A stretch of DNA of 64,000 bases from Actinomycetota bacterium (lineage in GTDB: Bacteria; Actinomycetota; Acidimicrobiia; Spongiisociales; ZC4RG35), in contig JBKHKD010000005.1 in assembly GCA_046537785.1 (NCBI GenBank), forward strand, positions 27,991 through 91,990, in the 5' to 3' direction. The first letter of the stretch is position 1; every line of letters begins with the position of its first letter. Below are positions 34,220 to 49,672 of the stretch, one piece after another. A model generated the notes under the pieces. That model ran no database searches and was not told the DNA's origin. It saw only the letters and a list, made by a program, of their open reading frames with translations. Made by a program: the position numbers and the translations under genes.

Positions 34220-34273
34220 CGTTGGCTCCTCTCGCCCCTGGAGTGGGAACCAAGCCTTGATGATCCACCAATA

Positions 34274-34295
34274 GAGGCCCCATCTCAGGGGCCTC
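34274..34295. other. GC-rich stem-loop GAGGCCCC-ATCTCA-GGGGCCTC in the metG leader / element flank
   Basis: Perfect 8 bp inverted repeat with a 6 nt loop, about 55 nt upstream of the metG start (minus strand) and about 120 nt from the left att repeat. No clear U-tract. Confidence 0.3.
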
Positions 34296-34414
34296 GACGT
34301 TCTTCAGACGCGCCGAATATGCCCCAGGGAGGGGCGCATCATCGAGCGACTGCAGAACGAAATGGTCATTTCCGTCACAAGCCTACCCCCACACGGTGGC
34401 CGTGCTACCGAACA

Positions 34415-34545
34415 TCCAGATTCTGGATGTTCGATAAGTTCGATGAAACGACCGAGGTGCTGGCCGGAGGATCGTCGACAAGCCTCTGACCAGCACCTTT
34501 GTGGTCGGGACGGCCGGATTTGAACCGGCGACCTCAGCGTCCCGA
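34415..34545. repeat. left direct repeat (attL side), including a truncated 3' part of tRNA-Pro (34501..34545, corresponding to tRNA nt 32-76)
   Basis: About 90% identical to 49540..49672. 66 bp perfect core 34480..34545 (AGCCTCTGACCAGCACCTTTGTGGTCGGGACGGCCGGATTTGAACCGGCGACCTCAGCGTCCCGAA). Identity ends exactly at the position matching tRNA nt 32 in the anticodon loop. Confidence 0.8.
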
Positions 34546-34637
34546 AAGGTGCCGGGCCTCTTTTCTAAATACTGATTTGGACGAATTACCAGGTCAGAGC
34601 CTATGAGTGGACTGGCCTGGACCCCCTTGATTGTGAG

Positions 34638-34663
34638 CGGATGTTCGATAAATGTTCGATGAA
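34638..34663. repeat. third copy of the 26 nt motif GGATGTTCGATAAATGTTCGATGAAA, candidate integrase/Xis arm-type site
   Basis: The same motif occurs inside both att repeats (34424..34447 with a 1 nt deletion; 49549..49574 exact). It contains an internal tandem TGTTCGAT. Confidence 0.45.
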
Positions 34664-34759
34664 AGTCGCGAAAAGTGACGCTATTTCGGATCACCCATCC
34701 TGCATCGTTCTGACTTACGATGGCTTGGATGGCTCTCTTCCTCTGCACATCTACTCGGA

Positions 34760-35023
34760 GTGCTGCCAATGGTCGATAAGCCCATCGACCTCGCCGCCGC
34801 ACGGGAGCAGACCCTCGAGGCGATCCGGAAGGAGTATCCCCCATTGCTCACCTCGGCCCATGTCGCCGAGCTCATGCAATGCACCATCTGGGAAGTGCGC
34901 GACCAGGTCCACCGTGGCGAGCTTCCCGCGGTCCGTTGGGGTCAGCAGTTCCGCTTCTTCCGCGAAGAGGTGTTGGCCGTCCTCCTCAACCGGCCGGCCG
35001 GACCCAACGAGGCCGATGACTGA
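34760..35023 (+). CDS. HTH_17 (excisionase/AlpA-like) DNA-binding protein
   Basis: 87 aa, GTG start. Segment AHVAELMQCTIWEVRDQVHRGELPAVRWGQQFRFFREEV fits the excisionase-type winged HTH. Confidence 0.55.
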   Translation: MLPMVDKPIDLAAAREQTLEAIRKEYPPLLTSAHVAELMQCTIWEVRDQVHRGELPAVRWGQQFRFFREEVLAVLLNRPAGPNEADD

Positions 35024-35270
35024 CGTGCCCGACGAGAACCCTGAGATCACATACGAGAAGTGGTATCCGGACGTGCCGCCCGTCATGGACAGTCAAGAGC
35101 TGGCGGAGCTGCTCTCGGCCTCAGATCAGGTGATCCGGACCTGGGCACGCGAGGGCGTGATCCCGTCCCACCGGGCTCCCGGCGCTCGCAAGTTCAAGTT
35201 CCTCCGCCATGAGATCTTCCAGTGGCTCGTCGAGAATCGTTACGTCCCACCCGACGACCAAACCGCCTGA
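35016..35270 (+). CDS. HTH_17 (excisionase/AlpA-like) DNA-binding protein
   Basis: 84 aa from the ATG overlapping the upstream stop (ATGACTGA). Segment QELAELLSASDQVIRTWAREGVIPSHRAPGARKFKFLRHEIFQWL. The longer track ORF (34641..) has an implausible N-terminus. Confidence 0.5.
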   Translation: MTDVPDENPEITYEKWYPDVPPVMDSQELAELLSASDQVIRTWAREGVIPSHRAPGARKFKFLRHEIFQWLVENRYVPPDDQTA

Positions 35271-35398
35271 TTTCAACACGCGAGCGGGCCAATTACACCG
35301 TTTGTCGGATCAGACCGCCCTCAAAGTCCCCGCAAATCTCGGGTGGTCAGAAGGATCACCGTTCCAATCAAGATACGACTCCATCGGCATCCTGTCCG

Positions 35399-38161
35399 CT
35401 AGCCCTCTCCATCCTCCACCCTGACCACCTGCATACCTGCGAATTTCGCCCCGACAATGTTGCCCGCTTCTTCGCGCGGAGCAGGGCCCGAAAGCCATCC
35501 CGCACTCGACAGGTCCTCCCAGAGCCATTGGTACACCAGCCGGGTGACAGGATCTGCATCGAAGATGTCCAGGACGGTCATCGCACCTGATGGAGATAAA
35601 CGATGGGCGAACTCAGGGCGATACCGTCGGATTGCGGTGAAGATGCTCTCCGGCGGATCCCCGCCCACAACGCTGGGCACATCGGCTGTCAGGTCCACAA
35701 CCGAAGCCTGGGAGTCGTCGATCGGCTCCCAGTAGTAATTCAGAACAGGACCCATGCCGCCCTTGTTGTTGGACATGGTGAGTCGCCCTCGCATCGATAC
35801 CGGCATCATGAGTGCTCGAGGCATGACGTGTCTTAGGTTGGAGAACCACTGGTCGACAATCTCTGTGAACGTATGGAGGGCTGCTTCGTAAACTGCGATC
35901 GTCCGCTCTCGAAGACGCTGTTCGGAGTAGGGGGACCACACCCACCCACCGCTGTGTCTCAGATCCGGACCGGGCAATGGAGGATCCATCGTTTGAGCGC
36001 CGCTTGCTTGCAGCTGTCCGACAACTCGTCGCAATTCGGGGATACGCAATCGGCGCCGGCGCACCGCGTTGAACCCCGCAGCTTCGGCTCGCTCCAACAC
36101 CTCCTCGTCGAGTAGCTGGAGATCAATGGGTTCGCTATAGAGACTGCCGCGGCCAATGAGTTCCAGCGCGGTTCTCCATGCGGCCTCCTTCTCAATGAAT
36201 GTCCCACTAGTCGGCAGTGATCGAGTCGACATGATGTTGGCTAGCGACAGCTTCAAGGTTTCAAGGCTCCACCGCCATGGCCAGTTGGATCCACTCCCAA
36301 CTGGACTTGAGAGAACGAGTCCCCATGGCCATTGGCCTTGAAAGGCCTCCGGAGGAACGTCACTCCCCACCTCGTCCTCACCGAAATACCACGACGTACT
36401 GAGTCGTGACCCATATATTTGCGCCGCGAAAGGGCAGAGACCTTGCCGCGTTAGCGGACCGATGAGGCGACCCAGGTCGCCCAAACCTGTGATCCATGAC
36501 ACCATCGTGGTCGGCACTCGACCGAGTTCCCTCTTCGACGGTTGGACTTCGGATATGTCCCCCTCGTCGCCCCACCTCGAGAGCGCGTCGTCTATCACTT
36601 CGCCGGCCAGGCCGGGGTAACGAGTGACAAGCTCGTCCATTTGATCGTACGTGCCGTCAAAGCTCCCTTTTCCGATGGCGATCGAGAGTGAGGTCGACCA
36701 CGCCTCAGCGTCTCTGAGTTCCTCAATGGGAGCCCGATTTCCCTCCAATAGCCACTGGGCAGCAAACCACTGAGCAAAGAGCGGTATCGAGAATTGCAGT
36801 GCGCGTCCGCTGTCTACGATCAGGCCAGCTTGGGCAAGCGTGAAGCGAGTGTCCGGCGTTAACCCGGCCTCGGCGGCATGGATCGGACCCACCCCGTGCT
36901 CAATGCTTTTAGCTGCAAGCGTCGGAAGTGCATCCAAACCGTCACCCTGGTGTCCCGGCCGTCCCAGTGCCGTGTTGATGACCTCATCAATGAGTGACAC
37001 GACGTTTGATGGCGGCCTCCCCACAGCCCGAATGAAACTGCCAGCCAGGATTGCGAACAATGGCCTCTTGACAGCTTCTCGAAGAGACTCTGGCCACTCG
37101 GAGATCGAGTACGTGGAGAGTTGCGTATCTCCGACAAGGTTGATGAGTTCAAGGGACCCCTCAACGCTCAGGGGAGTTAGTTGTATGCATTCCTCGAACC
37201 GTGCCATCGTTGGAATAGGGCGGCTTGTCACACATATGGTCGTTGCCGGGTACGTGTGGCAATACGCTCGAGCTTGCTCGATGACTTCGACCGCCCGCTC
37301 GCTGCCGAGAGATTCGAGACCGTCCACCACCAACCAAACCCCGCGGTCAGGGTTCCAGCTCAAAGGGCCTGCGACTTCGGAAATCGTGCCTTCAAGGCCG
37401 CCCTGTATCTGACCTGCCTCCACGTACACGGGTAATGGGGCCGCGTCGTCGTCAAGGGCGTTGGTAATGGCACGTTGGAGCAATCGCTCGGCCGTCAGAC
37501 TCTTCCCGCTCCCCATCGGACCAACAAGCAGAACCAGCCCTCGCCTGTCGGCGACAAGTCGTGACGGAACCCCCAAGTCTGGATCGTCGGCGAAGTCGGT
37601 TGCTGATGCAGAGGGTATACCAGCCCCCTGCCAGCGGGCGATACACCTACCCCGCGACTGGCGGCCGACAGTCTCAAGGTATGGAAGTCGGCTCGGACTG
37701 GTGGCAGCTCGTCGACGTACAGCTCGAACGATCTCGTCCTGGAGTGTGAGCCGAATGATCTGACCGAGACTTGCCAAGTCGTCGACGGTTACCCACTTGC
37801 AATGTTGGGCTACTCGGTCCAGGAGCGCTTCGGTGCCGTCAGCTCGTTCTTGAACAGGCAGCTTGAACACTAGAAGAGGAACCTTGTTATCTAGCGCCGT
37901 CGTAATCTCGTCCTCGACGGGACCGCTGGTCTCAGCGCCCACCAGCCAAATGACTAGATCAGCACTGGCTACGCGCTCCAGGTAGGTGGTACGAGGACCC
38001 TCGGAGCTAGCCGGTGTGAACTCGAACAACCACGGATGAAGAAACGGCGCATCCCCGATCGCCTGCTTCGCCAGGCCGCGCGCTGTATCCAGGAGCGGAT
38101 CGCCCATCACAGAGCTGACAAAAACCTGAAGCGGCCGCTCACTGGCGATTATTCGACCCAC
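35399..38161 (-). CDS. NACHT-family STAND NTPase with DUF4062-like N-terminal module and large uncharacterised C-terminal region; candidate NLR-like defense protein
   Basis: 920 aa, GTG start. N-terminal about 130 aa (PLQVFVSS...ADLVIWLVGAETSGPVEDE...VPLLVF) resembles DUF4062. Walker A LLVGPMGSGKSLTA. NACHT-type Walker B GVWLVVDGLESLGSE. TSRP motif (ICVTSRPIP). About 540 aa C-terminal region with no recognisable repeats. Confidence 0.7.
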   Translation of the reverse strand: MGRIIASERPLQVFVSSVMGDPLLDTARGLAKQAIGDAPFLHPWLFEFTPASSEGPRTTYLERVASADLVIWLVGAETSGPVEDEITTALDNKVPLLVFKLPVQERADGTEALLDRVAQHCKWVTVDDLASLGQIIRLTLQDEIVRAVRRRAATSPSRLPYLETVGRQSRGRCIARWQGAGIPSASATDFADDPDLGVPSRLVADRRGLVLLVGPMGSGKSLTAERLLQRAITNALDDDAAPLPVYVEAGQIQGGLEGTISEVAGPLSWNPDRGVWLVVDGLESLGSERAVEVIEQARAYCHTYPATTICVTSRPIPTMARFEECIQLTPLSVEGSLELINLVGDTQLSTYSISEWPESLREAVKRPLFAILAGSFIRAVGRPPSNVVSLIDEVINTALGRPGHQGDGLDALPTLAAKSIEHGVGPIHAAEAGLTPDTRFTLAQAGLIVDSGRALQFSIPLFAQWFAAQWLLEGNRAPIEELRDAEAWSTSLSIAIGKGSFDGTYDQMDELVTRYPGLAGEVIDDALSRWGDEGDISEVQPSKRELGRVPTTMVSWITGLGDLGRLIGPLTRQGLCPFAAQIYGSRLSTSWYFGEDEVGSDVPPEAFQGQWPWGLVLSSPVGSGSNWPWRWSLETLKLSLANIMSTRSLPTSGTFIEKEAAWRTALELIGRGSLYSEPIDLQLLDEEVLERAEAAGFNAVRRRRLRIPELRRVVGQLQASGAQTMDPPLPGPDLRHSGGWVWSPYSEQRLRERTIAVYEAALHTFTEIVDQWFSNLRHVMPRALMMPVSMRGRLTMSNNKGGMGPVLNYYWEPIDDSQASVVDLTADVPSVVGGDPPESIFTAIRRYRPEFAHRLSPSGAMTVLDIFDADPVTRLVYQWLWEDLSSAGWLSGPAPREEAGNIVGAKFAGMQVVRVEDGEG

Positions 38162-38482
38162 AATGCCTCAGTTGTAGCGACGACAATCTTCACGTCGAAG
38201 TGTGAGTCAATCGGCGGTAGTCCGGATATCGGGTGGCGGTGCGAATTCGCGACCACCTGAATTCTCGATGCGGTGTGTTTCGGCGCGAGATGCGGAGCAA
38301 CGGATCCGATTCCATGATCCGCCACCGATTGCGAGGGCGAGAGCACCTGAATCACGAGGGCATCTCCTCAGCGAGGTGCATGCCGACATCCCCCATTGCT
38401 TCTAGCAACTCCTGCACAACTCGCACAACAGTCTTAGCTTCGTCTTCGCTCACTTGATGGCCCGCGTGAACGACACTGCGTC

Positions 38483-39115
38483 TTATCCCGTTGGCGCCAA
38501 GCCACTTTGCCAAAGTGCCTGATCGTCAGCCGGACTGTCAAGGCCGATTCTCCTTATCGGCTTCTTCATCCGGTCACTGAGGACCTGCCCGTCTTCGTAC
38601 ATGAAGTGGTCAAACTCCTCCTCGGTCATGTCTCCGGAGTCGACAAGAGATGAGTACAGCTGCTTGTCGACAAACACCTCCAAGGCAGCAACCGCCTCAA
38701 TCACCGCCAGTCGATAATCCGTCTCCCATACGGCTCTGATCGCAGCCAAGAGAAGGTCGGCATGAATCGGGACGTTTTCTCCCGCCTCAGCCATCCGACG
38801 CACGTCCTCGTGGACAGCCAGTCCGTCGTTAACAACGGCGATCCTGAGTCCCCTACTAAAGAGTCCCACATATTCAATCTCACCTGTCAATGGATACTGG
38901 ATCTCCATGAAGCGGAGATCTGCGACTCGAAGTCGAGGAATGTAGGCCCGACCACTGATGTAGCGATAGGTGTCAATAAGGGCATTCGCGGCCGCCACGG
39001 CTAGGTGAGCTATGCGAGTCCCCTTTTCCTGTGGGGGTGTGTCCGCTGGATAGGTGAGTCCCACCACCATTCGTGTGTATCGGAAGTATCCAGTGCGGTC
39101 TCCGGCGAACTCCAC
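38483..39115 (-). CDS. hypothetical protein
   Basis: 210 aa, GTG start, no recognisable domain. Same strand, between the TA pair and the NACHT gene. Its frame stays open about 90 nt upstream without a canonical start. Confidence 0.4.
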   Translation of the reverse strand: MEFAGDRTGYFRYTRMVVGLTYPADTPPQEKGTRIAHLAVAAANALIDTYRYISGRAYIPRLRVADLRFMEIQYPLTGEIEYVGLFSRGLRIAVVNDGLAVHEDVRRMAEAGENVPIHADLLLAAIRAVWETDYRLAVIEAVAALEVFVDKQLYSSLVDSGDMTEEEFDHFMYEDGQVLSDRMKKPIRRIGLDSPADDQALWQSGLAPTG

Positions 39116-39165
39116 GTTCTTACCGACGAGGCCAGTTGTCTCATCACCACCGATAGGAGCGCCGA

Positions 39166-39456
39166 TCAGGTGTCCCTCGTGAAGTACCTGGTCTGGTCGG
39201 CAACGGTGTCATCATCCGAGGAATCCTGTGAGTTACGCCACATCTTCCGCGTGTCGATCTGCACGGGAGTGCCGTCGATGCGAACTACGTATGTCCCGTC
39301 CTCGAGATAGAGGCAGTAGGGCAGCTCAAGTCGGACTGCTATCGGAACGCCACCGTCCGGCTCAGTCACAGTCCATTTCATGGTGCTCATTCTCAGCTTC
39401 TCAACAAAACCAGTTTCCTTGCGATCGTCGTGGACTTTATGGAGGAGGGCCGACAA
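39166..39456 (-). CDS. hypothetical protein
   Basis: 96 aa, no recognisable domain. 50 nt upstream of the previous ORF in a different frame, so possibly a frameshifted fragment of one larger gene. Confidence 0.3.
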   Translation of the reverse strand: MSALLHKVHDDRKETGFVEKLRMSTMKWTVTEPDGGVPIAVRLELPYCLYLEDGTYVVRIDGTPVQIDTRKMWRNSQDSSDDDTVADQTRYFTRDT

Positions 39457-39511
39457 GAGCTATGGAGGATCTCTGGAAGAGTCGTCAATCAACGAGATCG
39501 GCGACGGCTAA

Positions 39512-39793
39512 CTATGGCTTCGAAGCAGTTTGACCGTATCTCTGACGGGCCGCCTCCCCCGACGTTCCGACCATTGCTCCAATCGATGCCCAGGAGTGTC
39601 CGTTAGCGCGAGCCCTCCGGACGGCGTCGGTTACTCGTTGTTCGGCTTCGGCTCGGGCAAGGAAGGCATGACGTAGCTGTCGAAGGGCGCTCGCGTCCCG
39701 GACGTCGTCTGCGTCTGGCTCGTGGTCTTCGAAGCGAGTAGCCAACTCCTCGGCTTGGTTGATGATCTCTTCAGCGGTTCGTGGCATGGTCAC
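39512..39793 (-). CDS. putative antitoxin (HTH-containing) partner of the BrnT-like toxin
   Basis: 93 aa, acidic N-terminus, C-terminal HTH-like GHSWASIGAMVGTSGEAARQRYG. 4 nt overlap with the upstream toxin gene; toxin-first order as in BrnTA. Confidence 0.45.
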   Translation of the reverse strand: MTMPRTAEEIINQAEELATRFEDHEPDADDVRDASALRQLRHAFLARAEAEQRVTDAVRRARANGHSWASIGAMVGTSGEAARQRYGQTASKP

Positions 39794-40017
39794 CTCAGGT
39801 ACTTTGGGCGGGCTTTCATTGCGTGGACCACGATCGGGCCCTCCTCGGTGCCCACGACGCCGATTTCGTAAAGATTGCCGGCACTATCGGGTCCGATGAA
39901 CATCGTCATTCGCTCGTCGAGGTCCTCGACGAGTATCGGGTTGTTGAAGGCATGGAGGATCGTCTCATCGCTAACACCGTGCGTTCTCGCACTGTCGACG
40001 ATTCGTGGCTTGGTCAC
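39790..40017 (-). CDS. BrnT-like toxin (DUF497 family ribonuclease toxin)
   Basis: 75 aa. HGVSDETILHAFNNP and (R)MTMFIGPDSAGNLYEIGVV...IVVHAMKARPKYL follow the BrnT pattern (HGVSxEEaxEvF.dP ... R.ISARKATK.E). Confidence 0.5.
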   Translation of the reverse strand: MTKPRIVDSARTHGVSDETILHAFNNPILVEDLDERMTMFIGPDSAGNLYEIGVVGTEEGPIVVHAMKARPKYLR

Positions 40018-40069
40018 AAGTTACCTTGCCAAATCGACGACTGCAAGATAACTTGCGACGTCGTAGGAA

Positions 40070-43000
40070 TCATCCGACGAGCCTCAGGGTCGGGGCTGGC
40101 GTTTCGATGGGCTCGAGGGCGATGTCGCGCCATTGCGCGGTCCCCGGTACAACAGGGTCGAGGAGATCGACCTCGGGCCCTACCTCCAACCGAGTCCTGG
40201 CGTAGACGGCCACGGCGGTATCCCACGCTTGCGGATTGGGAGATTCGGATCGGGATCCGATCTCGGCGAGAAGATCTTCTGGCGGGTTTATCTGCGAGAG
40301 CACCGTTCGGGCTGCGACTCGCCTGTCGATCTCCTGGAGGACGTCGCTGTATTCGTCGACCAACCGGGCGTGCTCGTCCATCCAGCGACCTCGGCGCGCC
40401 ATGGCCTCTGCCTCCATCATCGGCTGGTCGACCGCTGCGAGGTCGATGGTCGGCTCGTAGAGGGGGCCGTCCTTGAACAGTTGGAGGAGTTCTTCGCGTC
40501 GATCGATCAGCTGGCGATCGGTCATCGTCTCCGTGGATGGACGAGATTCGGTGGCAGCGGGTCGGACACCGCTGTTGGCGAGCTGGCGGACAAGGCTGTC
40601 GATACGGTTCTCGACTGCCGGTCGACAGTGAAGATGGCCGCAATCGCCGGTGGGCCCTGGCGGGTCGGCCATCCAGATGTGGGTTTCACCGGTCGCTCGG
40701 GACAGGCCCGTGTAGCCATGCTCGGCGGTCATCATCTGATCGACGTAGAGGTGGACCCGGTCGTAGGTGTGGCCCTGGGCGGTGTGGATCGTCTGGGCGT
40801 ATCCGTAGTCGACACTCTGATCGACATACCGTCTCGGCAGGACCACTTCAACCCGGTCGTGGTCACGCCTGAAAGTGAGCTGACCTGAATCGAGGTCGAC
40901 GTGGGCGATGGTTCCCGTTTGTCCGTTGCGGAGGTCGGCGTGGGCGTACCAGTTGCTCCGCACCACGATCCGGTCCCCGGCCTGAAATCGCATTCCCGTC
41001 CGGGTCTCCAAGGCTGGTCCGGCGAGGAGGCCTTCGGATTCCATCCGGGCTCGTGCGAGATGGTTGAGTATGTCGACGTCGGTGCGGCGGCCGGACAACA
41101 TCCGAACGCTGTCGATACCGTGCTCTCTGGTGTCGGCCCACCAGACGTCGACCAGGTCGCTCATGGTGTTCGTGCGGTCGTGGCCGACGTGGACGCGGCC
41201 GGCTTCGGTGTAGTCGAACAGGGTTCGTTCGGTGTTTCCGGCTCGGAGCTGGTCCAGCGCCTCCCGGTCGATGTCGTGCGCCTGTCGTTGGTTCACTTCT
41301 GCGAGGTCGGTGACGACTCCGTGGCCGTCGGCCATGATCCGGTGGAACAGGCCACCCGAGTCGATCGAGGGCAGCTGGTACGGGTCGCCGAGGAGGATCA
41401 GCTTGCCATCAGCGGCGCCGACCAACTCGACGAGACGTGCCAGGTCTTTAGTGGACACCATGGAGGCCTCGTCAGAGACGATCACCGTTCCCGAGGGCAG
41501 GATCTCGTCTCGCTGGTCGAGATGGTGGGTGAGCATGGCGATGGTGCCGGTCCAATGCTCAACGAGGTCTTGGGACAGTCTCTGTGCTGCGCTGGCGGTG
41601 GTTGCCACTCCGATGACGTGATGGCCGGCGGCTTGGGCGGCGTCGGTGTAGGCGCCGATCGCATAGGTCTTTCCCGAGCCGCCCGGACCGGCCACCGCCA
41701 CGACTCGCCCGTCCAGGTCTGCGAGACGTCGGATCGCCCACTCCTGTTGCCTGGTCAGCTCCCGGAGCTTGGCTGCCCGATCCAGCACATCGGCGTCGAT
41801 TCGGACGGGGCTCGGCTGGTGTACGGCGGAGAGGACCCCTTGCTCCCGATCCAGCTGTGTCCGCGTCGTGAACAGAGCGTCATCCGACAGCCACCATCTT
41901 CCGCCCAGCGTGTGGTCGGCGAGGGGGATGGCCTCGCCACGCGCCACCGCCGCTTCGAGGACCCGGTCGACGGCGAGGGCGAGATCGGCGGATGTGGTGC
42001 CTTCGGGGAACGATTCGGCGACGTACGGCAGGAGGTCGCGCTTGGTGAACACCGGCTGCGAGTCCGTGACTTCGACCACGGTCCATTCCGCCGAGTCGGT
42101 CAAGCTTCCCGGGCTAGGACGGAAACGGTGGCGGCCCTCACCGACGACCGCCCGGACGACCTGAGCCGGGTCTTCCGGCGCGTCCGCGGCACGTCGCTGC
42201 CAGTGAGCAACCACGTCCGAGCCCACTCCGTAGTCACGCATCTCCTGGGTGACCGGAGCCTCCCCTCGAGGGTGCTGTTTGGGCTGGCGGGTCTCCAGAG
42301 TGAACTTCTGCAGCATCCTGGCGTGGATCCGACCGCCGTTGCGTGCCGCATACGCTTCCGCCGCTTCGAGGATCTCGGCCCGACGTGTCGAGAAGTGCTC
42401 CAGCAGTTCTCGGGAGAAGCCGCTGATGTCGGCGATCCCGTTCACCACCGGTCCCCAGGAGACACCGAGTCGCCGGGTGAGCTCGTCCCGGAGCACCGTT
42501 TCGTAGATGGTTCCGCCTGCCTTGGCGTGCAGGTAGTTGCGTCGGGCTTCCAGGGCTCTCCAGCCGTCTTCGGTGTGGACCCGGTTGATCACCACCACGT
42601 GGGTGTGGAGCTGGGGGTCGTTGGCCCGTGAGGTGGAGTGGTCGAACGCTGCGGCCACCCATCCATCCGAGTCGACGTACTGCGTGGTCTGCTGCCGCTT
42701 GCAATTTTCGTCCCGCCGGCTTGTCACCTTCCTGGCTTGCGCGCAGTGTTCCTCCATGTACTCCACCGCCTGACCAACTGCCTCCAAATGAGCGTGACGG
42801 ACCTGCTCTCGGATCTGGCTGTCCCCGAAGGCGTAGAGGAGCGACACCGACTTGGGAGCGGACAGCGTGTGGTCGAATGCCGCCACCTTGCCGTGGGATG
42901 CGTGAGCCCGAGTCATCGACTCACCCGAAAGCGTCACGTGACCCATCAACCGGGCGAAAGCCTCCTTGGTCACCGGCGACTCCGGGTCAACACCCGCCGC

Positions 43001-43174
43001 CTCGAGCCCTGAGCCCATCCACCGTGCCGGCGCCTGATGGCTTGCGTAGTAGTCGACCCGGCCATCCTTGCCTACGCCACGCAGGACCGGGACGTCCTCG
43101 CCAACCGAATGGGAGAGCTGTTCGGTGTAGTAGTCCACCGACGCCGCCGACAGCTTCCCGATCGCCAACATCAC
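40070..43174 (-). CDS. MobF-family (TrwC/TraA-like) conjugative relaxase with C-terminal RecD/AAA_30 helicase
   Basis: 1034 aa. N-terminal TrwC relaxase domain with a histidine triad (DPQLHTHVVVINRVH). P-loop helicase (VAVAGPGGSGKTYAIGA) and UvrD_C-like end. Confidence 0.85.
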   Translation of the reverse strand: MMLAIGKLSAASVDYYTEQLSHSVGEDVPVLRGVGKDGRVDYYASHQAPARWMGSGLEAAGVDPESPVTKEAFARLMGHVTLSGESMTRAHASHGKVAAFDHTLSAPKSVSLLYAFGDSQIREQVRHAHLEAVGQAVEYMEEHCAQARKVTSRRDENCKRQQTTQYVDSDGWVAAAFDHSTSRANDPQLHTHVVVINRVHTEDGWRALEARRNYLHAKAGGTIYETVLRDELTRRLGVSWGPVVNGIADISGFSRELLEHFSTRRAEILEAAEAYAARNGGRIHARMLQKFTLETRQPKQHPRGEAPVTQEMRDYGVGSDVVAHWQRRAADAPEDPAQVVRAVVGEGRHRFRPSPGSLTDSAEWTVVEVTDSQPVFTKRDLLPYVAESFPEGTTSADLALAVDRVLEAAVARGEAIPLADHTLGGRWWLSDDALFTTRTQLDREQGVLSAVHQPSPVRIDADVLDRAAKLRELTRQQEWAIRRLADLDGRVVAVAGPGGSGKTYAIGAYTDAAQAAGHHVIGVATTASAAQRLSQDLVEHWTGTIAMLTHHLDQRDEILPSGTVIVSDEASMVSTKDLARLVELVGAADGKLILLGDPYQLPSIDSGGLFHRIMADGHGVVTDLAEVNQRQAHDIDREALDQLRAGNTERTLFDYTEAGRVHVGHDRTNTMSDLVDVWWADTREHGIDSVRMLSGRRTDVDILNHLARARMESEGLLAGPALETRTGMRFQAGDRIVVRSNWYAHADLRNGQTGTIAHVDLDSGQLTFRRDHDRVEVVLPRRYVDQSVDYGYAQTIHTAQGHTYDRVHLYVDQMMTAEHGYTGLSRATGETHIWMADPPGPTGDCGHLHCRPAVENRIDSLVRQLANSGVRPAATESRPSTETMTDRQLIDRREELLQLFKDGPLYEPTIDLAAVDQPMMEAEAMARRGRWMDEHARLVDEYSDVLQEIDRRVAARTVLSQINPPEDLLAEIGSRSESPNPQAWDTAVAVYARTRLEVGPEVDLLDPVVPGTAQWRDIALEPIETPAPTLRLVG

Positions 43175-43324
43175 CCCCTCCCGGCCGGCAACACATCGTG
43201 TTGCAAGTGCGTACGGAGAAATCGCCCTGGCGACGAGAGGACATGTCGTGTCATCGAGGACTCCTGGGTCAGTGGCGAAGAGTCAGCCAGCAACGTGACC
43301 GGCGTCCACATGCGGCTCGACTGA

Positions 43325-43423
43325 CCCTTGCATTAGTCATTGTTAACGATAGAATACCTAGAGATCAAAGGAATTACTAGGAATCAATTGCTGCACCGTG
43401 ATCCTCTTCGGACCCGAAATGGG
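43325..43423. promoter_or_regulatory. AT-rich divergent region between the relaxase gene and xis-int; candidate promoter/oriT region
   Basis: CATTAGTCATTGTTAACGATAGAATACCTAGAGATCAAAGGAATTACTAGGAATCAATTG. The GACATGTC palindrome and other short inverted repeats lie just upstream, at about 43175-43324. Confidence 0.4.
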
Positions 43424-43642
43424 ATGGAGAAGCTCCTTCTCACTCCCGAGGACGCCGCCGACCTCCTTTCAATCGGCCGCTCCAAGCTGTATGAGTTGTT
43501 AGGAGACGGCCGACTCGCCTCGGTTCGCATCGACGGCAGCCGACGTGTCCCGATGAGCGCTCTCGTCGAATTCGTCGACAGCCTCAAGGAGACTTGGAAT
43601 CAACTTCCCGACGTAGGACCCGCCCGGAGACGCAGAAACTAA
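43424..43642 (+). CDS. xis: excisionase (HTH_17/Xis family)
   Basis: ATG at 43424 gives a 72 aa protein (MEKLLLTPEDAADLLSIGRSKLYELLGDGRLASVRIDGSRRVPMSALVEFV). Stop is 1 nt before the integrase start. The track ORF starts at a TTG at 43340 inside the AT-rich tract. Confidence 0.65.
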   Translation: MEKLLLTPEDAADLLSIGRSKLYELLGDGRLASVRIDGSRRVPMSALVEFVDSLKETWNQLPDVGPARRRRN

Positions 43643-43643
43643 A

Positions 43644-44777
43644 ATGAGCATCCACCCCCGAATGACCGACCGAGGGCGTGTCTACGACGTTCGGTACCGG
43701 GGACCAGGCGGTCAAAACTTCTCCCGAACATTCCTCACCAAGCGAGCCGCGCTCGAGTTCGAAGCGCAACAGAGAACAGCCAAGAACCGCGGCACCTGGA
43801 TCGACCCTCGAGGCTCCAAGATCACGGTGCGGGAGCTCGGCCAGGAATGGCTCGACAGCAACCCGACAAAGCGAGACTCCACGTGGGCCCGTGACGAGAG
43901 CGCCCTTCGAATCCACGTCTACCCCGACCTGGGGGACAGGACTATCGGCAGTCTCACCCCGGTCGACATCAGAAGGCTGGTCGCCAAGATGTCCGAGAAC
44001 CTGGCACCTCGATCTGTGCGACGCATTTACGGAGCGCTCCGAGCCGCGCTGAACTATGCCGTCGAGGTCGACCGGCTGGCGAGGACACCCTGCCGAGGCA
44101 TCCACCTTCCGGCTGTCGAGCCGGTGAAAGTCACCGTGCCAGGTCCCGTGGAGCTCATCGAGCTAGCCGACACGATCGACCCGAACTACTCGGCGATGAT
44201 CTGGCTCGGAGCAGTACTCGGTCTCCGCTGGGGCGAAGTAGCAGGACTGCGCGTCGGCAACGTCGACGTGCTCCGCAAGACCGTGACGATCGCCGAGCAG
44301 GTAACCCGAGGTAGAGGTGGGGCGGGCGACATCGGTCCACCAAAATCAGCCGCCGCCCGCAGGACTATCAGCATCCCGGCTGAGCTAGCAGACGAGCTAA
44401 GCGCCCACATGAAGGCCATGGAGCTGACGGGAGCCGACCCTGAGGAGATGCTCTTCCCCAACAACGAAGGAAAGCCACTCGACTACTCCAACTGGCGTCG
44501 CAGAGTCTGGGAGCGAGCCGTCAAGGCCGCCGGCTTAGACGGTCTCAACTTCCATGACCTCCGCAGGACTAACGCCACGGCAATGGTCGCCGAGGGCGTG
44601 GACGTCAAGACGGCACAGGCCAGACTCGGACACTCCGATCCGCGTCTGACGTTGGCCATCTACGCCCAGGCGACGACGGAGGGCGACCGCTCAGCGGCGG
44701 AGAAGCTCGGTGCGCGGCTGATGGGCTCCGGTGATGAGGACGGCGATGCCTCGTCCTCAGTATCAACATCCGTATAA
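43644..44777 (+). CDS. int: tyrosine-type site-specific integrase
   Basis: 377 aa. N-terminal SAM-like domain. Catalytic domain with R...HDLRRT...LGHSDPRLTLAIYAQ (R-H-R-Y). Confidence 0.9.
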   Translation: MSIHPRMTDRGRVYDVRYRGPGGQNFSRTFLTKRAALEFEAQQRTAKNRGTWIDPRGSKITVRELGQEWLDSNPTKRDSTWARDESALRIHVYPDLGDRTIGSLTPVDIRRLVAKMSENLAPRSVRRIYGALRAALNYAVEVDRLARTPCRGIHLPAVEPVKVTVPGPVELIELADTIDPNYSAMIWLGAVLGLRWGEVAGLRVGNVDVLRKTVTIAEQVTRGRGGAGDIGPPKSAAARRTISIPAELADELSAHMKAMELTGADPEEMLFPNNEGKPLDYSNWRRRVWERAVKAAGLDGLNFHDLRRTNATAMVAEGVDVKTAQARLGHSDPRLTLAIYAQATTEGDRSAAEKLGARLMGSGDEDGDASSSVSTSV

Positions 44778-44936
44778 AGGATGAAGCCTCGATGGATCGT
44801 GGTAGTCGAACTCCATCGCGAGTACCGAGATCTCGACAAGGGCCTACGGGTCGCATAGTGAGGGGCCCTGAGATGGGTCCTCACGTGCAGAGCACAGGTC
44901 AGACTCAGCCGTTTCCTGGACCGGCTAGGGGGAAGA

Positions 44937-47615
44937 TCAGGTGGCACGGCGGGGTGGTGTGACCGGGGCGGATCGAACTGAGAGGGCGGTGAGGACGGCG
45001 ATGAGGAGCGGGAGAGCGACGCCGATCGCGACCAGAGCGGGCCAGGGGACGGCGACGAACGAGGAGCGGACAATACCGAAGGGCCCGGCCCAATAGCCGT
45101 CGTCGGCGAGTCCGATCACTTTCATCAGCCCGAGGCCGAGGGGGATGGCGAGGAGGGCGGCGACGAAGGTCTGGTAGCCGGCGAGCACGCCGAGGAAGCG
45201 GCGGCGGATGCTTCCTGGTGCTCCGACCGCGACCACGATGCCGAGGTCGTGGTCGACCTCGGAGGCGGAGACGGCGGTGACGAGGGCGATCACGAGGAGT
45301 ACGACGAGGAGGGTGCCGCCCAGCATGAGGGGGTAGAGGTCGGCGAGGGTGAAGTCGGAGAACCCACCGACAACGTCGAAGTTCAGGTTGACGGATTCCC
45401 GCTCGGAGTCGGTGAGCGGCCTGTCCAGCACGAATAGGGCACGGGTTTGCCGCTCTCCCTCCAGCTCTGCGGCGACCTGTTCTGAGACCAGGATTCGGGA
45501 CATGGCGAAGGAGAGGATCGGCACCGGGAGCTGGGTTACGGTGCGTCGCTCCCCGGCTAGCTCGACGTCGATGGTTCCCTCCTCGACGCCGAGGACGGCG
45601 ATGCCGTCGGTGGCCAGCGCTTCCGCCAGGCCGGGGTGGTCGAGGGCCTGCACCAGCTCCGGTGTCGCCACCGCCACGCTGCTCCCGCCCACGTCTCTGC
45701 TCGGCACCCCCGGGACCTCGCCTTCGCTGATGGGTATCTGCCAGCCGAGGATTGCAGGTGTGTCGATCGCCTCGTAGGGGGCGAGCGTCTCCTCGGGGAT
45801 GACCGCCGCCGCTTGGTGGATGTCGGCTTCGGTGAGGTCGCCTCCGCCTCCGAACATGCCCTCCTCGGGGGCGGCGCCGACCAGGAGCAGGTGGTCTTCG
45901 GGGTGGGGGAGGCCGTGTACCCGTTGCTGCACCTCGGAGGTGGCTTCGAATGCGATCGACACCACCGGGATGATGAGGATCACCAGGGTCGCGGCTACCG
46001 CTACCGCCGAACGGGTGCGGTGGCGGGCGGAGTCGCGAAGCACCAGGCGTGTGGTGCCGGCGACTCGGTCGGCCGCTCGGGAGAGGAGGGCGAGGATGGG
46101 GCCGGCGAGGAGGGCGGTTCCCCCGATGGCCATCGCCCCGCCTATCGGAACGATGACAACTGCGAGGTCGACGGTGGAGGCGAGGGCGACCACAAGCAGG
46201 AGGGCTCCCATCCCGGCGAGGCCCAGGCCGAGGGGAACGATCCAGGGTCGGGGTGGGAAGGCGGGCATGCGTCCTTGGAGGGCGGTGGTGGTGGGCACCC
46301 GGGAGGCGGTACGGGCCGGGATCCACGCAGCGACCGCGGCCGCTCCGACCGCCATCGCCGCCGGGCCCACCACGTCGAGGGGGGTCACACCGATACCCAC
46401 CAGCAGCTTGGTGACGAACTGTTGAAGGAGGGGCCGGGCGGCGAGCAGAACTCCGGTCCCGAGACCGATCCCAGTGGCCGCCCCCAGGGCCCCGACCGCG
46501 AGGCCTTCCCCGAGGACGGTGAGGCGGAGGTGTCGGTCGGAGGCGCCGTTGGCGCCCAACAGGCCGATCTCCCGCAGCCGACGTCGGGTCCCGGCGGCGA
46601 AGGCTGCACCGGCCACGAAGGCGACCTCGAGCAGGAGCAGCGCGGAGACCCCGGTGGAGATCGTAGGAGCGGACTCGACCACGGAGTTGTGCTGCTGCTG
46701 GGAGAGGGCTGCCCTGGTTTCCACCTGGAGATAGGGAACCGTGACCTGAGGGCGGACGGTGGCATCGATCATCCGGTGCGCCTCGGTGCGGGCAGCTTCG
46801 TCGCCTTCCGTGCGGGCGACCTCGACCAAGTGCTCCACCTCGGACTCGTCGAAGTACACGTATATCTCGTCGGGGACGGAGGCCAGCTCCCCTGGCTTGG
46901 GAAGCACCGCCGGCTCGGGCCAGAACTGGCGTCGGTCCTGTTCCCAGCGCTCTGCGAGCGCCTCCGCCGTCGCCACCGGGTCCTCGTCGGCGATGACCAC
47001 CGTCGTTCCGTCGTCCCCGGCCACCGGGTAGATGGCGTCCATCAGCTCCATCGTCACTGTGATGAGCCGCTCCTCGTAGATCCCTGGCGATCCCACCAAC
47101 CCCACCAGCTCCATCGTCTTGCGCTCCACGCCCGGTAGCTCCAGCTCCACCGTGTCACCGGGTTCGACACCGAGCCGCTCGGCGAGCAGCGGGGACAGCG
47201 CCACCTCATCTCCGGATGCTGGCGGCCGGCCTGCGGTGGTCGCCCGCATGGCGCCGGTGATCGGGTCGGCCGGGTCGATGTCACTCATCCTTTCGGTACC
47301 CGCCACCTCCGGGATCAGGTCGGTGCGCACCATCCGCATCACCGTCCATGTGGCAGCCGGACTCACTTCGCCCAGCGTCGACTCCACCCAGGAGAGCACC
47401 CGGGAGTCGTCCGACAACCCCACCCAGATGTCGCCATCACCGAAGATCGACCGCATCGACTCCTCGACGGTGCGCTCACTTGCCCGGAACATCCCCGCAG
47501 CCACCACCGCCACCATCACCGGGACGGCGATCAGGGCCACCAGGAACCCGGTGCGACGGCGGTTGCGGATGGCGTTGCGCCGTGCCACCCGAAGGGCAGC
47601 AGCTCGCCCGCTCAC
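44937..47615 (-). CDS. ABC transporter permease with two FtsX domains and large extracytoplasmic MacB-like domains
   Basis: About 890 aa. GTG start overlapping the ATPase stop (GTGA), N-terminus LRVARRNAIRNRRRTGFLV. Two 4-TM FtsX blocks. The overlapping 473 aa Arg-rich ORF (44905..46326) is an alternative-frame artefact. Confidence 0.75.
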   Translation of the reverse strand: MSGRAAALRVARRNAIRNRRRTGFLVALIAVPVMVAVVAAGMFRASERTVEESMRSIFGDGDIWVGLSDDSRVLSWVESTLGEVSPAATWTVMRMVRTDLIPEVAGTERMSDIDPADPITGAMRATTAGRPPASGDEVALSPLLAERLGVEPGDTVELELPGVERKTMELVGLVGSPGIYEERLITVTMELMDAIYPVAGDDGTTVVIADEDPVATAEALAERWEQDRRQFWPEPAVLPKPGELASVPDEIYVYFDESEVEHLVEVARTEGDEAARTEAHRMIDATVRPQVTVPYLQVETRAALSQQQHNSVVESAPTISTGVSALLLLEVAFVAGAAFAAGTRRRLREIGLLGANGASDRHLRLTVLGEGLAVGALGAATGIGLGTGVLLAARPLLQQFVTKLLVGIGVTPLDVVGPAAMAVGAAAVAAWIPARTASRVPTTTALQGRMPAFPPRPWIVPLGLGLAGMGALLLVVALASTVDLAVVIVPIGGAMAIGGTALLAGPILALLSRAADRVAGTTRLVLRDSARHRTRSAVAVAATLVILIIPVVSIAFEATSEVQQRVHGLPHPEDHLLLVGAAPEEGMFGGGGDLTEADIHQAAAVIPEETLAPYEAIDTPAILGWQIPISEGEVPGVPSRDVGGSSVAVATPELVQALDHPGLAEALATDGIAVLGVEEGTIDVELAGERRTVTQLPVPILSFAMSRILVSEQVAAELEGERQTRALFVLDRPLTDSERESVNLNFDVVGGFSDFTLADLYPLMLGGTLLVVLLVIALVTAVSASEVDHDLGIVVAVGAPGSIRRRFLGVLAGYQTFVAALLAIPLGLGLMKVIGLADDGYWAGPFGIVRSSFVAVPWPALVAIGVALPLLIAVLTALSVRSAPVTPPRRAT

Positions 47616-48331
47616 GTCAAGTCCGCCGCGGTCGATGGCACCCGGGACCGCTCCGAGATCCCCTCCACCGCACCGTCCCGCAGCCGCACCACCCGGTCCG
47701 CCCAAGCCGCGAATGCCGGCTCGTGGGTGACCAAAAGCGCCGCCGCGCCGGCGTCGCAGCGGGCCCGGAGCAGGCGGAGGATGCTCTCCCCGGTGGCCTC
47801 GTCCACCGCCCCGGTGGGCTCGTCGGCGAGAAGGAGAGTCCGAGGGCCCACCAGCCCTCGGGCGATGGCGACCCGCTGCTGCTCACCACCCGAAAGCTGA
47901 TCGGGAAACCGGTCGGCCATACCTCCCAACCCGACCTCGTCCAAAGCGACCTCGGCGAAGCGTCGCGCTTCACGGGGGTCCATCCCGTCGAGCTCCAACG
48001 GCAGAGCGATGTTCTCCGCCGCGGTCAGAGACGGCAACAGGTTGAACTGCTGAAACACATACCCCACCGACACTCGACGAAGACGGGCCAGCTCGGCACG
48101 CGACAGCTCGGCCAGGTCTTGGCCATCGACCCAGATGGTGCCTGTAGTGGGCGTGTCGAGCGCCCCCGCCAAGTTGAGCAGGGTGGTCTTGCCCGAACCG
48201 CTCCGCCCCGTCACCGCCACCAACTCACCAGGAGCGATATCGAGATCGACGTTGACCAGGGCATCGACCCGCTGGGCGCCAGTACCGTGGGTCTTCCCCA
48301 CCCGACGCATCGACAAGATCGGCTCGCTCAT
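47612..48331 (-). CDS. ABC transporter ATP-binding protein (MacB/LolD-type)
   Basis: Walker A GRSGSGKTTLLN, signature LSGGEQQRVAIARGL, Walker B LLLADEPTGA. ATG at 48331 (MSEPILSMRRVGKTHG) overlaps the padR stop. Confidence 0.85.
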   Translation of the reverse strand: MSEPILSMRRVGKTHGTGAQRVDALVNVDLDIAPGELVAVTGRSGSGKTTLLNLAGALDTPTTGTIWVDGQDLAELSRAELARLRRVSVGYVFQQFNLLPSLTAAENIALPLELDGMDPREARRFAEVALDEVGLGGMADRFPDQLSGGEQQRVAIARGLVGPRTLLLADEPTGAVDEATGESILRLLRARCDAGAAALLVTHEPAFAAWADRVVRLRDGAVEGISERSRVPSTAADLT

Positions 48332-48876
48332 GTCCTCACCTCCTCCGACCCTGGCACAGGCTCGGAAGCGGGAGCAGGGTCCAGCCGATCCTCGACCCGC
48401 TCCAGCCACCGCAGCTCCGCCTCGGCCGAGAGGATCAGCCGGTCGAGCTGTAGCTGCCAGGCCAGGTCCCGGTCATCGGCAGCCGCCTTGAGGGCCGTGT
48501 AGTCCTGGAGCAGGCCCATGGTGGCGCTCCGCTGCACCTCCACGACCCGACGGGCGTCCAACCCCGAGGCGAGGGCCACCATCAGCTTGAGCGAGATCTC
48601 ATCCCGCCCCGCCGCCGCAAGCTCCACTGGACCGGCCATCCAGGCCGCCACGGCCTCCCGGCCGGCATCGGTGATCCGATAGACGATCCGCCCCTGGGCG
48701 TCCGAGCCCGACGACGTCACCAGCCTGTCTCGCTCCAGCCGGGACAGAGTGGTGTACACCTGGCCGACATTGATCGACCACATCTCACCAGTCGCCGCCT
48801 CTAGATCCACCTTGAGCTGATACCCGTGGGCGTCTCCCCGCGCCAACAAAGCGAGCATTCCTTCCCTGATCCCCAT
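48328..48876 (-). CDS. PadR-family transcriptional regulator
   Basis: MLALLARGDAHGYQLKVDLE...VGQVYTTLSRLERDRLV winged HTH; 182 aa with a C-terminal coiled-coil. Confidence 0.8.
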   Translation of the reverse strand: MGIREGMLALLARGDAHGYQLKVDLEAATGEMWSINVGQVYTTLSRLERDRLVTSSGSDAQGRIVYRITDAGREAVAAWMAGPVELAAAGRDEISLKLMVALASGLDARRVVEVQRSATMGLLQDYTALKAAADDRDLAWQLQLDRLILSAEAELRWLERVEDRLDPAPASEPVPGSEEVRT

Positions 48877-49045
48877 TCAGACTCCTTACATACTCGGTAT
48901 GCGAGAGGATATACATACTGAGTAAGTGCTGTCAACCCGGGTCCCAATCTCTGTTCTCGCCAGAGGTGACCCAAGTGCGTCGCGTCACCACGGCGCGGTG
49001 GATCGACTCGGGTGGAGCGTGTGTGGCTCGCCGAAGTTGGACCTT

Positions 49046-49468
49046 CTAGGCAGGACCCAGATCGTCCAGCCACGTGCTGGGGCATGGCAGGTGATGCGGG
49101 ATGAACGTTGAAGGCGTCGGAACCGGGCGGGACAGGACGCTGCCCGAGCTTGTTGGCGTGACCGCGTACTCGTTGATGTTGTAGACGAGCGGGGAGTCGT
49201 TGGAGTCGTAGCGCTCAGTCACCAGAGTTCCTCGACGGGGCGAGTACGCGGCCCGGAGGAACTTCGTGCTGTCGCGAACGAAGCTCGGCTGATGTGACGT
49301 GGGTAGGAGCACGGCATCGCCCGTGCTGGTGGGAGGAACGAAATCGCTGGGTGTCGAGCGCCGGCTCATCGTCCATGATTGTCTCAGTGTTGAGCGCCTG
49401 GCCAATGCGTGGGCTTCTCGTCTCCGTCGTTCCCGACGGGGTAGTGAAGCCATGTCGTTACGGGACAA
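49046..49468 (-). CDS. hypothetical protein (Arg/Ser-rich, low complexity)
   Basis: 140 aa, TTG start, no domain. May not be a real gene. Confidence 0.25.
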   Translation of the reverse strand: MSRNDMASLPRRERRRREAHALARRSTLRQSWTMSRRSTPSDFVPPTSTGDAVLLPTSHQPSFVRDSTKFLRAAYSPRRGTLVTERYDSNDSPLVYNINEYAVTPTSSGSVLSRPVPTPSTFIPHHLPCPSTWLDDLGPA

Positions 49469-49539
49469 GCAAGGACGCGTCGTGCAGGCTCGTGAAGGAG
49501 GAGCCTAAGGGAACGATGGAAGGCGACTTGGCGGGTTTC

Positions 49540-49672
49540 CCAGATCTTGGATGTTCGATAAATGTTCGATGAAACGACCGAGGTGCTGGCCGGAGGCCTG
49601 TCGGTAAGCCTCTGACCAGCACCTTTGTGGTCGGGACGGCCGGATTTGAACCGGCGACCTCAGCGTCCCGAA
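49540..49672. repeat. right direct repeat (attR side), overlapping the 3' part of the intact tRNA-Pro gene
   Basis: Matches 34415..34545. Perfect 66 bp core 49607..49672. Confidence 0.8.

Follow-up and report, generated by a model that had tools for sequence, protein, structure and literature searches.

The window analysed here is a stretch of 64,000 nucleotides (nt) from the forward strand of contig JBKHKD010000005.1 (positions 27,991 to 91,990; assembly GCA_046537785.1) and belongs to a metagenome-assembled genome (MAG) of the Acidimicrobiia. It contains a mobile element of 15,126 base pairs (bp), measured from inner boundary to inner boundary (34547-49672), that lies in a tRNA-Pro(CGG) gene and is bordered by two long direct repeats. 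Housekeeping genes flank the element, metG being the left neighbor and asd and ask the right ones, and an adjoining 103-aa protein matches MAGs labelled Actinomycetota/Acidimicrobiia. By Rfam, tRNA-Pro(CGG) is the sole tRNA of the window. A tRNA-Thr(GGT) of 88 nt, called by ARAGORN at 41174-41261 (plus strand) inside the relaxase open reading frame (ORF), has no Rfam tRNA at the gathering score and was discarded as a false positive. The features of the attachment (att) sites are given below, where P and P' denote the two arms of the putative attP, and related loci carry L numbers throughout.

34416-34546, minus strand: left direct repeat, at the distal junction, composed of a P-arm-like outer block (34416-34501) and the displaced tRNA-Pro 3' part (34502-34546)
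34425-34448, minus strand: degenerate 24-nt copy of the motif, GGATGTTCGATAA--GTTCGATGAAA, read as a probable relic arm site
34456-34497, minus strand: left copy of the hairpin, with arms at 34456-34470 and 34483-34497 and a loop unlike that of the right copy
34547-49539, no strand: unique body of the integrated element, bounded by the repeats
34639-34664, minus strand: 26-mer of the P' arm, which on the tRNA strand shows two ATCGAACAT half-sites spaced by 11 bp, kept at the equivalent position in L091 and L092
49540-49672, minus strand: right direct repeat, composed of the element P arm (49540-49627) and the 3' part of the now-functional tRNA-Pro (49628-49672)
49549-49574, minus strand: exact 26-mer of the P arm, 53 nt beyond the tRNA 3' end, with an equivalent arrangement at metagenome tRNA-Pro(CGG) loci
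49582-49623, minus strand: hairpin directly 3' of the tRNA, with arms at 49582-49596 and 49609-49623 (-41.8 kcal/mol, z = -5.3)
49628-49704, minus strand: intact tRNA-Pro(CGG) with encoded CCA (ARAGORN; Rfam tRNA, 63.9 bits)

The direct repeats, 131 nt on the left and 133 nt on the right, are identical in 124 of 133 columns of a local alignment (93.2%). Their identity has one end at the edge of the anticodon loop and the other at a CCAGA..CTGG edge. The inner boundary is exactly the 5' edge of the anticodon loop, at raw tRNA position 33, which corresponds to canonical position 32 because ARAGORN sets the anticodon at 35. A sequence-only reading of this DNA had described a perfect 66-bp core running from the anticodon loop to the tRNA 3' end. 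Its start at canonical position 32 stands, but the perfect block is 67 bp long (34480-34546 and 49606-49672) and is made up of 45 nt of tRNA, from canonical position 32 to the CCA, followed by 22 nt past the CCA that reach into one arm of the hairpin. The extension beyond the core, placed by that reading at 34415-34479 and 49540-49606 with about 90% identity, is real; it covers 34416-34479 (64 nt) and 49540-49605 (66 nt), and 57 of 66 columns are identical (86.4%). The differences are one 2-nt indel and seven mismatches, of which five fall within the loop of the hairpin. Both the repeat anatomy and the inner boundary at the anticodon loop agree with the original proposal that these are att repeats of an element inserted in tRNA-Pro. 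The 5' part of the present tRNA-Pro(CGG) gene, up to the anticodon stem, is host-derived, and the gene from the anticodon loop onwards comes from the element.

The 3' ends of these tRNA genes also vary in a second respect. CCA is not encoded by naive tRNA-Pro(CGG) genes and by some element-supplied 3' parts (…CCCGACTCAG…), and a CCA-encoding 3' end is supplied by the window element and many other elements. The sites compared are 49626-49630 in the window, 9788-9792 in L112, those of L116, L129, and L153, and the outer copies of L088 and L091. Integration therefore toggles the gene between CCA-encoded and CCA-added forms.

The 26-mer GGATGTTCGATAAATGTTCGATGAAA is present as two exact copies, at 34639-34664 and 49549-49574, and no other site in the 64-kb window matches it at three or fewer mismatches (0.00 expected). 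On the tRNA strand it reads TTTC-ATCGAACAT-TT-ATCGAACAT-CC, that is, two half-sites one helical turn (11 bp) apart. The motif had been said to occur three times at 26 nt. Two copies are indeed exact, but the third is 24 nt long, with a 2-nt deletion between its TGTTCGAT-type half-sites that leaves a spacing of 9 bp instead of 11 bp, and the copy assigned to 34638-34663 was off by 1 nt. The TGTTCGAT octamer occurs five times in the 64-kb window, each time within one of the three motif sites.

A second short repeat, (C/T)TCCCAGA or TTCCAGA, is found immediately outside the 8-mer pair in P arms as one to four direct copies at intervals of ~10-20 nt (window, 49535-49548; L089, 6607-6664; L093, 237-289; L113, 50-76; L154, ~4995-5030). 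The final copy makes a CCAGAnnCTGG palindrome, and P' arms are without this repeat. It could be a further protein-binding array, e.g., for excisionase.

When the element ends are joined to rebuild attP, the exact 26-mers are centered at -107.5 nt (P) and +108.5 nt (P') from the center of the anticodon loop, in equal orientation. The same geometry is observed in the attP of L091, a complete sister element with both arms. In L129, an actinomycete integrative and conjugative element (AICE), a tandem pair lies ~111 nt from the anticodon loop. The hairpin, with a stem of 15-16 bp, stands between the tRNA and the P-arm motif pair, and the loops of its two copies differ (ATCGTCGAC vs CCTGTCGGT). Across 17 sequences, 96.5% of the hairpin cells are paired, with a shuffle control that was uninformative. 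In the minimum free energy fold of 49575-49640 (minus strand), the conserved CGACC beside the motif (GGUCG in the transcript) pairs with the CGACC at the tRNA acceptor's 3' end and extends the hairpin by 5 bp; this extension could be relevant to 3' processing or could be chance. A consensus scan of the P' region gave no promoter.

The motif scan of metagenome contigs returned 16 matching contigs, and all 16 are tRNA-Pro att sites. In 13 of them, the motif lies 53-60 nt beyond an intact tRNA-Pro(CGG) and after an equivalent hairpin. The remaining three are a locus whose tRNA 3' end is cut by the contig end, the P' copy of L092, which is a close relative of the window element, and the outer block of L088, beside a partial tRNA. 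The sister element L091 is 94-95% identical to the window element in the integrase protein and 89% in the relaxase, and 90% identical across the integrase-to-relaxase region. Both have int and the P arm in common, and the DNA between the two is unrelated. The stretch from int to the P arm is therefore a cargo hotspot, which explains why the homology of many loci ends just outside the motif. Sequences of this family are also poorly captured by assembly: Logan unitigs and several MAG contigs (L081, L082, L100, L113, L126, L153, and L154) break in or at the att repeat or within the element. Family islands are therefore systematically split in short-read assemblies, and their ends are under-sampled.

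Two classes of site are present in the family. The type-1 26-mer, built on TGTTCGAT, is kept in L091, L092, and L153. The second class is built in the same way, except that CGCGGGAT takes the place of TGTTCGAT in both octamers, on both arms. The L092 outer block shows the pattern GGA-CGCGGGAT-nnn-CGCGGGAT-GAAA with the frame unchanged, as do three P arms (those of L113, L126, and L154). The P' arm of L088 reads gtgggcGGA-CGCGGGAT-AAA-CGCGGGAT-GGAAgtcgcgaaaagtgacgc, and its flanks are otherwise like those of the window P' arm. Integrases of L126 and L154 are 84-85% identical to that of the window, and the two site alleles occur among integrases that are 83-88% identical. More distantly, the L129 integrase is 66% identical to the window integrase and belongs to a classical AICE (FtsK/SpoIIIE, RepSA, xis, int) beside tRNA-Pro(CGG). 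In L129/L130, three CGCGGGAT copies run from the int stop codon onward, two of them 11 bp apart. A concerted switch of both half-sites on both arms, within conserved flanks, is what would be expected of a changed protein-binding specificity. Viral contigs were scanned with the integrase, and no relative was found. The type-2 pattern gave 21 matches in viral contigs, none with a tRNA, and these are taken as chance in GC-rich phages.

The integrases of four type-1 elements (window, L091, L093, and L153) were compared with those of three type-2 elements (L154, L126, and L129). Fifteen positions are class-diagnostic, and 8 of the 15 fall in residues 1-50 (positions 4, 7, 9, 22, 25, 26, 35, and 48), with a binomial probability of 2.6e-4 that ignores phylogeny. 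The AlphaFold2 model of the integrase has a predicted local distance difference test (pLDDT) score of 82. In this region (pLDDT 73-90) the model has strands at residues 2-8, 11-19, and 25-30 and a helix at 33-49. The N-terminus is thus predicted to be a three-strand-plus-helix unit like the arm-binding domain of lambda Int. A layout of strands and helix of this kind is that of the arm-binding domains of the lambda and Tn916 integrases. With full-length chains of lambda Int (1z1b, 1z1g, and 5j0n), alignments extend over 350-385 columns, and integrase residues 1-76 have no sequence match in the PDB. Because of the concerted switch and the clustering of diagnostic residues in the predicted arm-binding-like N-terminus, the 26-mer pairs can be read with reasonable, though far from full, confidence as integrase arm-type sites in preference to excisionase or regulator sites. 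The sequence-only reading had likewise supposed arm-type sites, for integrase or Xis, and the symmetric placement on the rebuilt attP arms, the conservation in sister elements, and the joint change of half-sites in the second class all fit a protein-binding arm site.

How the repeated block is inherited is seen most clearly in the pair L089 and L098. Over the stretch that starts in the anticodon region, crosses the tRNA 5' half, and enters the host flank, the two loci have 225 matches and 5 mismatches (225/230). From the T-arm to the motif edge (116 columns), they have 95 matches, 14 mismatches, and a 7-nt indel, and the sequence beyond is unrelated. The tRNA 3' part, hairpin, and motif therefore travel with the mobile DNA, and the exchange point must lie between the T-arm and the tRNA 5' half, in an 18-nt segment common to all loci. 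Naive sites point the same way. In L112 (a 2-Mb contig), L116, L117, and L122, tRNA-Pro(CGG) is followed by unrelated sequence, and none of the four carries the GGTGCTGG hairpin, the motif, or an integrase. The absence of the block from naive sites, its movement with the element, and the overlap of the AICE repeats with int together suggest that the host carries element-like sequence at the left boundary and not the reverse. The earlier suggestion that the element carries host-like flanking sequence is accordingly not supported by these loci. The check proposed with it, whether the extended identity also stands downstream of tRNA-Pro in naive genomes, came out negative for these relatives.

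Decayed and tandem elements are common at tRNA-Pro(CGG) among the loci compared. L087 retains only integrase residues 304-361, and L093 has a pseudo-integrase together with a full integrase. L088 is an array with three partial or complete att junctions, in the order of a partial tRNA fused to an integrase fragment, cargo, a type-1 block with partial tRNA, and a type-2 element. All four distal junctions seen carry a block: the window (type 1, damaged), L088 (type 1), L092 (type 2), and L091 (hairpin, with the contig ending before the motif). In the window, every part of a P arm is found in the left block, and the motif there is damaged. The ~85 bp of extra identity at the left boundary is thus most likely a P arm left by an earlier, decayed element of the same class, an origin that is inferred for the window genome from the naive sites and the decayed and tandem elements of its relatives. 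The 2-nt deletion in the relic motif fits lost constraint. Homology between a relic and the present P arm would stop at the boundary of arm and cargo, regardless of where the deletion ended, and the sharp outer edge therefore needs no special mechanism. A route from integration through decay to a cis-mobilizable remnant, with a newcomer entering the regenerated target, has been described (PMC5704250), and tandem AICEs and remnants are documented (PMC2440964). Formation of the relic by deletion between the P and P' 26-mers was considered and rejected, as a partial tRNA and the 92-bp P' spacer should then remain beside the motif, and neither is found at 34220-34415.

Two further observations concern this decay. 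At 2986-3055 (minus strand) of L088, the 3' part of a tRNA-Pro, consisting of a hairpin remnant, the acceptor, and the T-arm, runs straight into a piece of an integrase gene. This piece begins at the HDLRRT codons, and the DNA there, GACCTCCGCAGG, is similar to the tRNA core, GACCTCAGCGTCC. In L087, the truncated integrase begins within ~15 nt of the L088 fusion point, which points to repeated recombination of the att core with a similar site in int. In the window, a GC-rich hairpin (GAGGCCCC-atct-caGGGGCCTC, 34274-34295) separates the relic block from the metG start codon. It may be a terminator that remains from the earlier element, or it may insulate metG.

Taken together, the repeats are read as attL and attR of a 15.1-kb integrative mobilizable element (IME) in tRNA-Pro(CGG), the 26-mers as arm sites, and the left extension as a relic arm. 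The probability of this combined reading is put at roughly 0.6. Under it, an element with xis, int, and a MobF relaxase would have inserted into the tRNA-Pro(CGG) gene of an Acidimicrobiia bacterium, with strand exchange in or beside the anticodon loop (the exact position is inferred), so that the element supplies a new tRNA 3' part. The attP would be long. Its P arm would be made up of the tRNA 3' part, the stable hairpin, and a direct pair of 8-9-nt half-sites 11 bp apart, and its P' arm would hold a second, identical pair, both pairs lying ~108 bp from the anticodon loop. These pairs would be read by the predicted three-strand-plus-helix N-domain of the integrase, as in heterobivalent integrases of the lambda, L5, and pSAM2 type. 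At least two site alleles, TGTTCGAT and CGCGGGAT, would change together on both arms and track substitutions in the integrase N-terminus. An earlier element of the same class most likely decayed in place and left its P arm, after which the present element would have entered the regenerated tRNA (accretion after decay).

Several observations weigh against this reading. The integrase covariation comes from seven elements and probably from one switching event. The naive sites belong to relatives whose neighboring protein is only ~74-76% identical. No empty site of the same species was found, as Logan, sister-MAG, metG, and 103-aa-neighbor contigs end inside the repeat. A search for a naive attB by metG synteny in species-representative genomes gave a best relative of 72% identity, with tRNA-Pro beside metG in no locus checked; tRNA-Pro is likewise not adjacent to homologs of the neighbor proteins P0008 and P0056 in their lineages, and at P0056 loci the naive tRNA-Pro sites are 4 kb away. 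From the left block to the metG start codon there are 196 bp with nothing recognisably element-derived, and the earlier element would have had to be almost entirely deleted. The hairpin has no double compensatory changes among the 17 sequences, and a simple terminator scan made no call; it is kept as a stable hairpin and not as a proven terminator.

The repeats could also be sites for one of the three HTH_17 proteins, either xis or the two regulators on the P' side, as directionality or operator sites. Head-to-tail repeats at one-turn spacing typify excisionase binding, as for lambda Xis; the HTH_17 genes at 34760-35270 have the P' copy ~95 bp upstream, and Xis has one internal class-specific residue, D49 vs G (D49G), in the predicted wing. 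Excisionase sites are usually confined to one arm, whereas each arm has a 26-mer, and the two mirror each other in their distance from the crossover region. The helix-turn-helix (HTH) region of Xis is near-identical across the two motif classes, in contrast to the eight diagnostic residues in the integrase N-terminus, and the AICE L129 has the repeats with no adjoining HTH_17 pair in the part recovered. Binding by an HTH_17 protein is accordingly rated as unlikely. That the motif is a generic dispersed repeat of the repetitive extragenic palindromic (REP) kind, near att sites by chance, deserves next to no credence. Repetition alone speaks in its favor, while the three window sites (5 of 5 octamers) and the 16 of 16 metagenome matches are all at att positions, and the type-1 motif has no exact match in the viral contigs scanned. 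The motif is thus no generic repeat, and it is not dispersed in the window.

For the block as a whole, it has to be asked whether the hairpin and motif are native chromosomal flank that was copied into attP, e.g., by imprecise excision among related hosts. The left copy abuts metG with no element genes between, the block is at every distal junction seen, and the place of the hairpin, just 3' of a tRNA, would be suitable for a host terminator. However, the block is missing from naive tRNA-Pro(CGG) loci, and two hosts that are ~98% identical on the host side differ in the block by 13% and an indel, with unrelated sequence past the block. The motif is also in the P' arm inside the element, where it switches class with the block, and the AICE repeats overlap the int stop codon. 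A host origin is therefore considered quite improbable. It is more improbable still, and close to untenable, that exchange takes place at the outer repeat edge, at the CCAGAnnCTGG palindrome, which would make the left tRNA part, hairpin, and motif element sequence and the right block host sequence. The homology of many locus pairs does end within ~10 nt of this edge, and the edge is a short inverted repeat. Yet the int-proximal cargo hotspot falls at this edge and accounts for the break in homology: int and the P arm are common to the window and L091, and the DNA separating them is not. The inner boundary at the anticodon loop, together with the symmetric placement of the exact 26-mers about that loop, fits exchange in the tRNA, and the pattern of L089 and L098 requires exchange between the T-arm and the tRNA 5' half. 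The island was also searched for a further att site in its interior, which would divide it into two elements, and no other tRNA 3' fragment is present in the window at eight or fewer substitutions.

The genes of the element are as follows.

34760-35023 and ~35022-35270, plus strand: two tandem HTH_17 (excisionase/MerR-like) genes that adjoin the P' arm
35399-38161, minus strand: 920-amino-acid (aa) cargo protein with weak DUF4062 and P-loop NTPase (AAA) matches, in the lower-GC part of the island
40070-43174, minus strand: MobF/TrwC relaxase-helicase of 1034 aa (TrwC, 4e-69; NF041492 MobF, 217.6 bits, cut-off 100)
43340-43642, plus strand: excisionase-family HTH_17 gene, xis (HTH_17, 1.3e-10; TIGR01764 'excise', 36.7 bits, cut-off 28.8)
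43644-44777, plus strand: tyrosine integrase of 377 aa, int (Pfam Phage_integrase, 2e-22)
44937-49468, minus strand: variable cargo between int and the P arm, comprising an FtsX permease, an ABC ATPase, a PadR regulator, and a 140-aa ORF

The integrase possesses the R-K-H-R-H-Y set of catalytic residues of its family, and R195, K234, H304, R307, H330, and Y340 are invariant in 40 homologs. The xis gene stops 1 nt short of int, as an adjacent recombination directionality factor. Small ORFs with no family match are also present in the element. Among the scanned island ORFs, several of which are small and without a family, there is no match to an FtsK/SpoIIIE translocase, a coupling protein, or type IV secretion system (T4SS) or mating-pore genes, and the scanned ORFs of the window element include no replication initiator (RepSA, RepAM, or prim-pol). 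By this gene content, the element is classed as an IME.

The cargo is variable in composition. The genes at 44937-48876 (FtsX permease, ABC ATPase, and PadR) have a GC content of 69-72%, against 63% for the island and flanks overall, and sister elements carry extracytoplasmic function (ECF) sigma factors or other genes at this position between int and the P arm. The end of L126 that corresponds to the location of the 920-aa protein encodes a shorter DUF4062 protein (387 aa). A defense role for the DUF4062/AAA cargo has no PADLOC or NCBIfam match and is only a guess.

For annotation, att identity that extends too far past a tRNA is a possible sign of stacked or relic integrations and not of a large core or captured host flank, and island boundaries and 'attB' definitions taken from such repeats are otherwise wrong. 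The loci compared document a family of elements that target tRNA-Pro(CGG) in uncultured Acidimicrobiia, with AICE-type and MobF-relaxase IME-type members in one integrase lineage. A wider proposal is that the arm-site alleles TGTTCGAT and CGCGGGAT are interchangeable and coevolve with integrase residues 4, 7, 25, 26, 35, and 48, and that the relic arm turns the distal junction into an attP-like one. This proposal is doubtful and is offered tentatively. If it were true, elements with integrases 83-88% identical would form separate classes of recombination specificity and could be stacked at one tRNA without cross-excision. An attP-like distal junction could permit excision, or the entry of a newcomer, by the integrative pathway, and the 2-nt deletion in the relic motif would be a disarming mutation that stabilises the island. 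The natural pair of arm-site variants, with few candidate specificity residues, could be used for tests of arm-site reading or for orthogonal integration tools. The current understanding of site-specific recombination is unchanged.

Compared with known systems, the window element is closest in several respects to pSAM2 and other AICEs. Like these, it has a tyrosine integrase with an adjacent HTH excisionase and targets the 3' part of a tRNA gene (tRNA-Pro for pSAM2), which is regenerated. The AICE relative L129 has 8-mer repeats of the same kind beside tRNA-Pro(CGG) and the 66% identical integrase described above. Unlike the AICEs, which have an FtsK-type transfer gene and RepSA or RepAM, the window element is without both and has a MobF relaxase. 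It also carries cargo between int and attP, and its host belongs to the Acidimicrobiia and not to the Actinomycetes proper. The integrase is ~32% identical to the nearest characterised AICE integrase (pMR2) and ~31% identical in sequence to phage integrases.

Among phage systems, lambda Int and L5 Int have three domains, as does the window integrase with its predicted N-terminal three-strand-plus-helix unit, and L5 likewise uses a tRNA gene as target. In lambda (P'1-3) and L5 (P1/P2 and P4/P5), arm sites are on both sides, with some adjacent pairs at ~11-bp spacing. The window attP resembles these in having more than 100 bp on each side of the core and repeated short putative arm sites on both arms. 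It differs from lambda and L5 in that one pair is recognised per arm, with equal orientation and symmetric placement, and the family differs in having two site alleles among such closely related integrases.

The proposed stacking has counterparts in the accretion of ICESt1 and ICESt3, in cis-mobilizable elements (CIMEs), and in IME tandems, where decay that keeps the att sites is followed by a second integration; L087, L088, and L093 show likewise. Unlike CIMEs, the supposed earlier element of the window amounts to the ~85-bp arm (and at most the 196 bp next to it) and is visible only as over-long att identity. Like IMEs, the window element encodes a relaxase next to its integrase and excisionase, and its scanned ORFs include no T4SS, coupling protein, or FtsK-like translocase. 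To our knowledge, no MobF-type IMEs have been described in Acidimicrobiia. By analogy, the system appears to work like the heterobivalent integrases of lambda, L5, and pSAM2, with the anticodon loop of a tRNA as target. Over-long att identity through accretion is already known, and the two arm-site alleles are a useful detail and no new principle.

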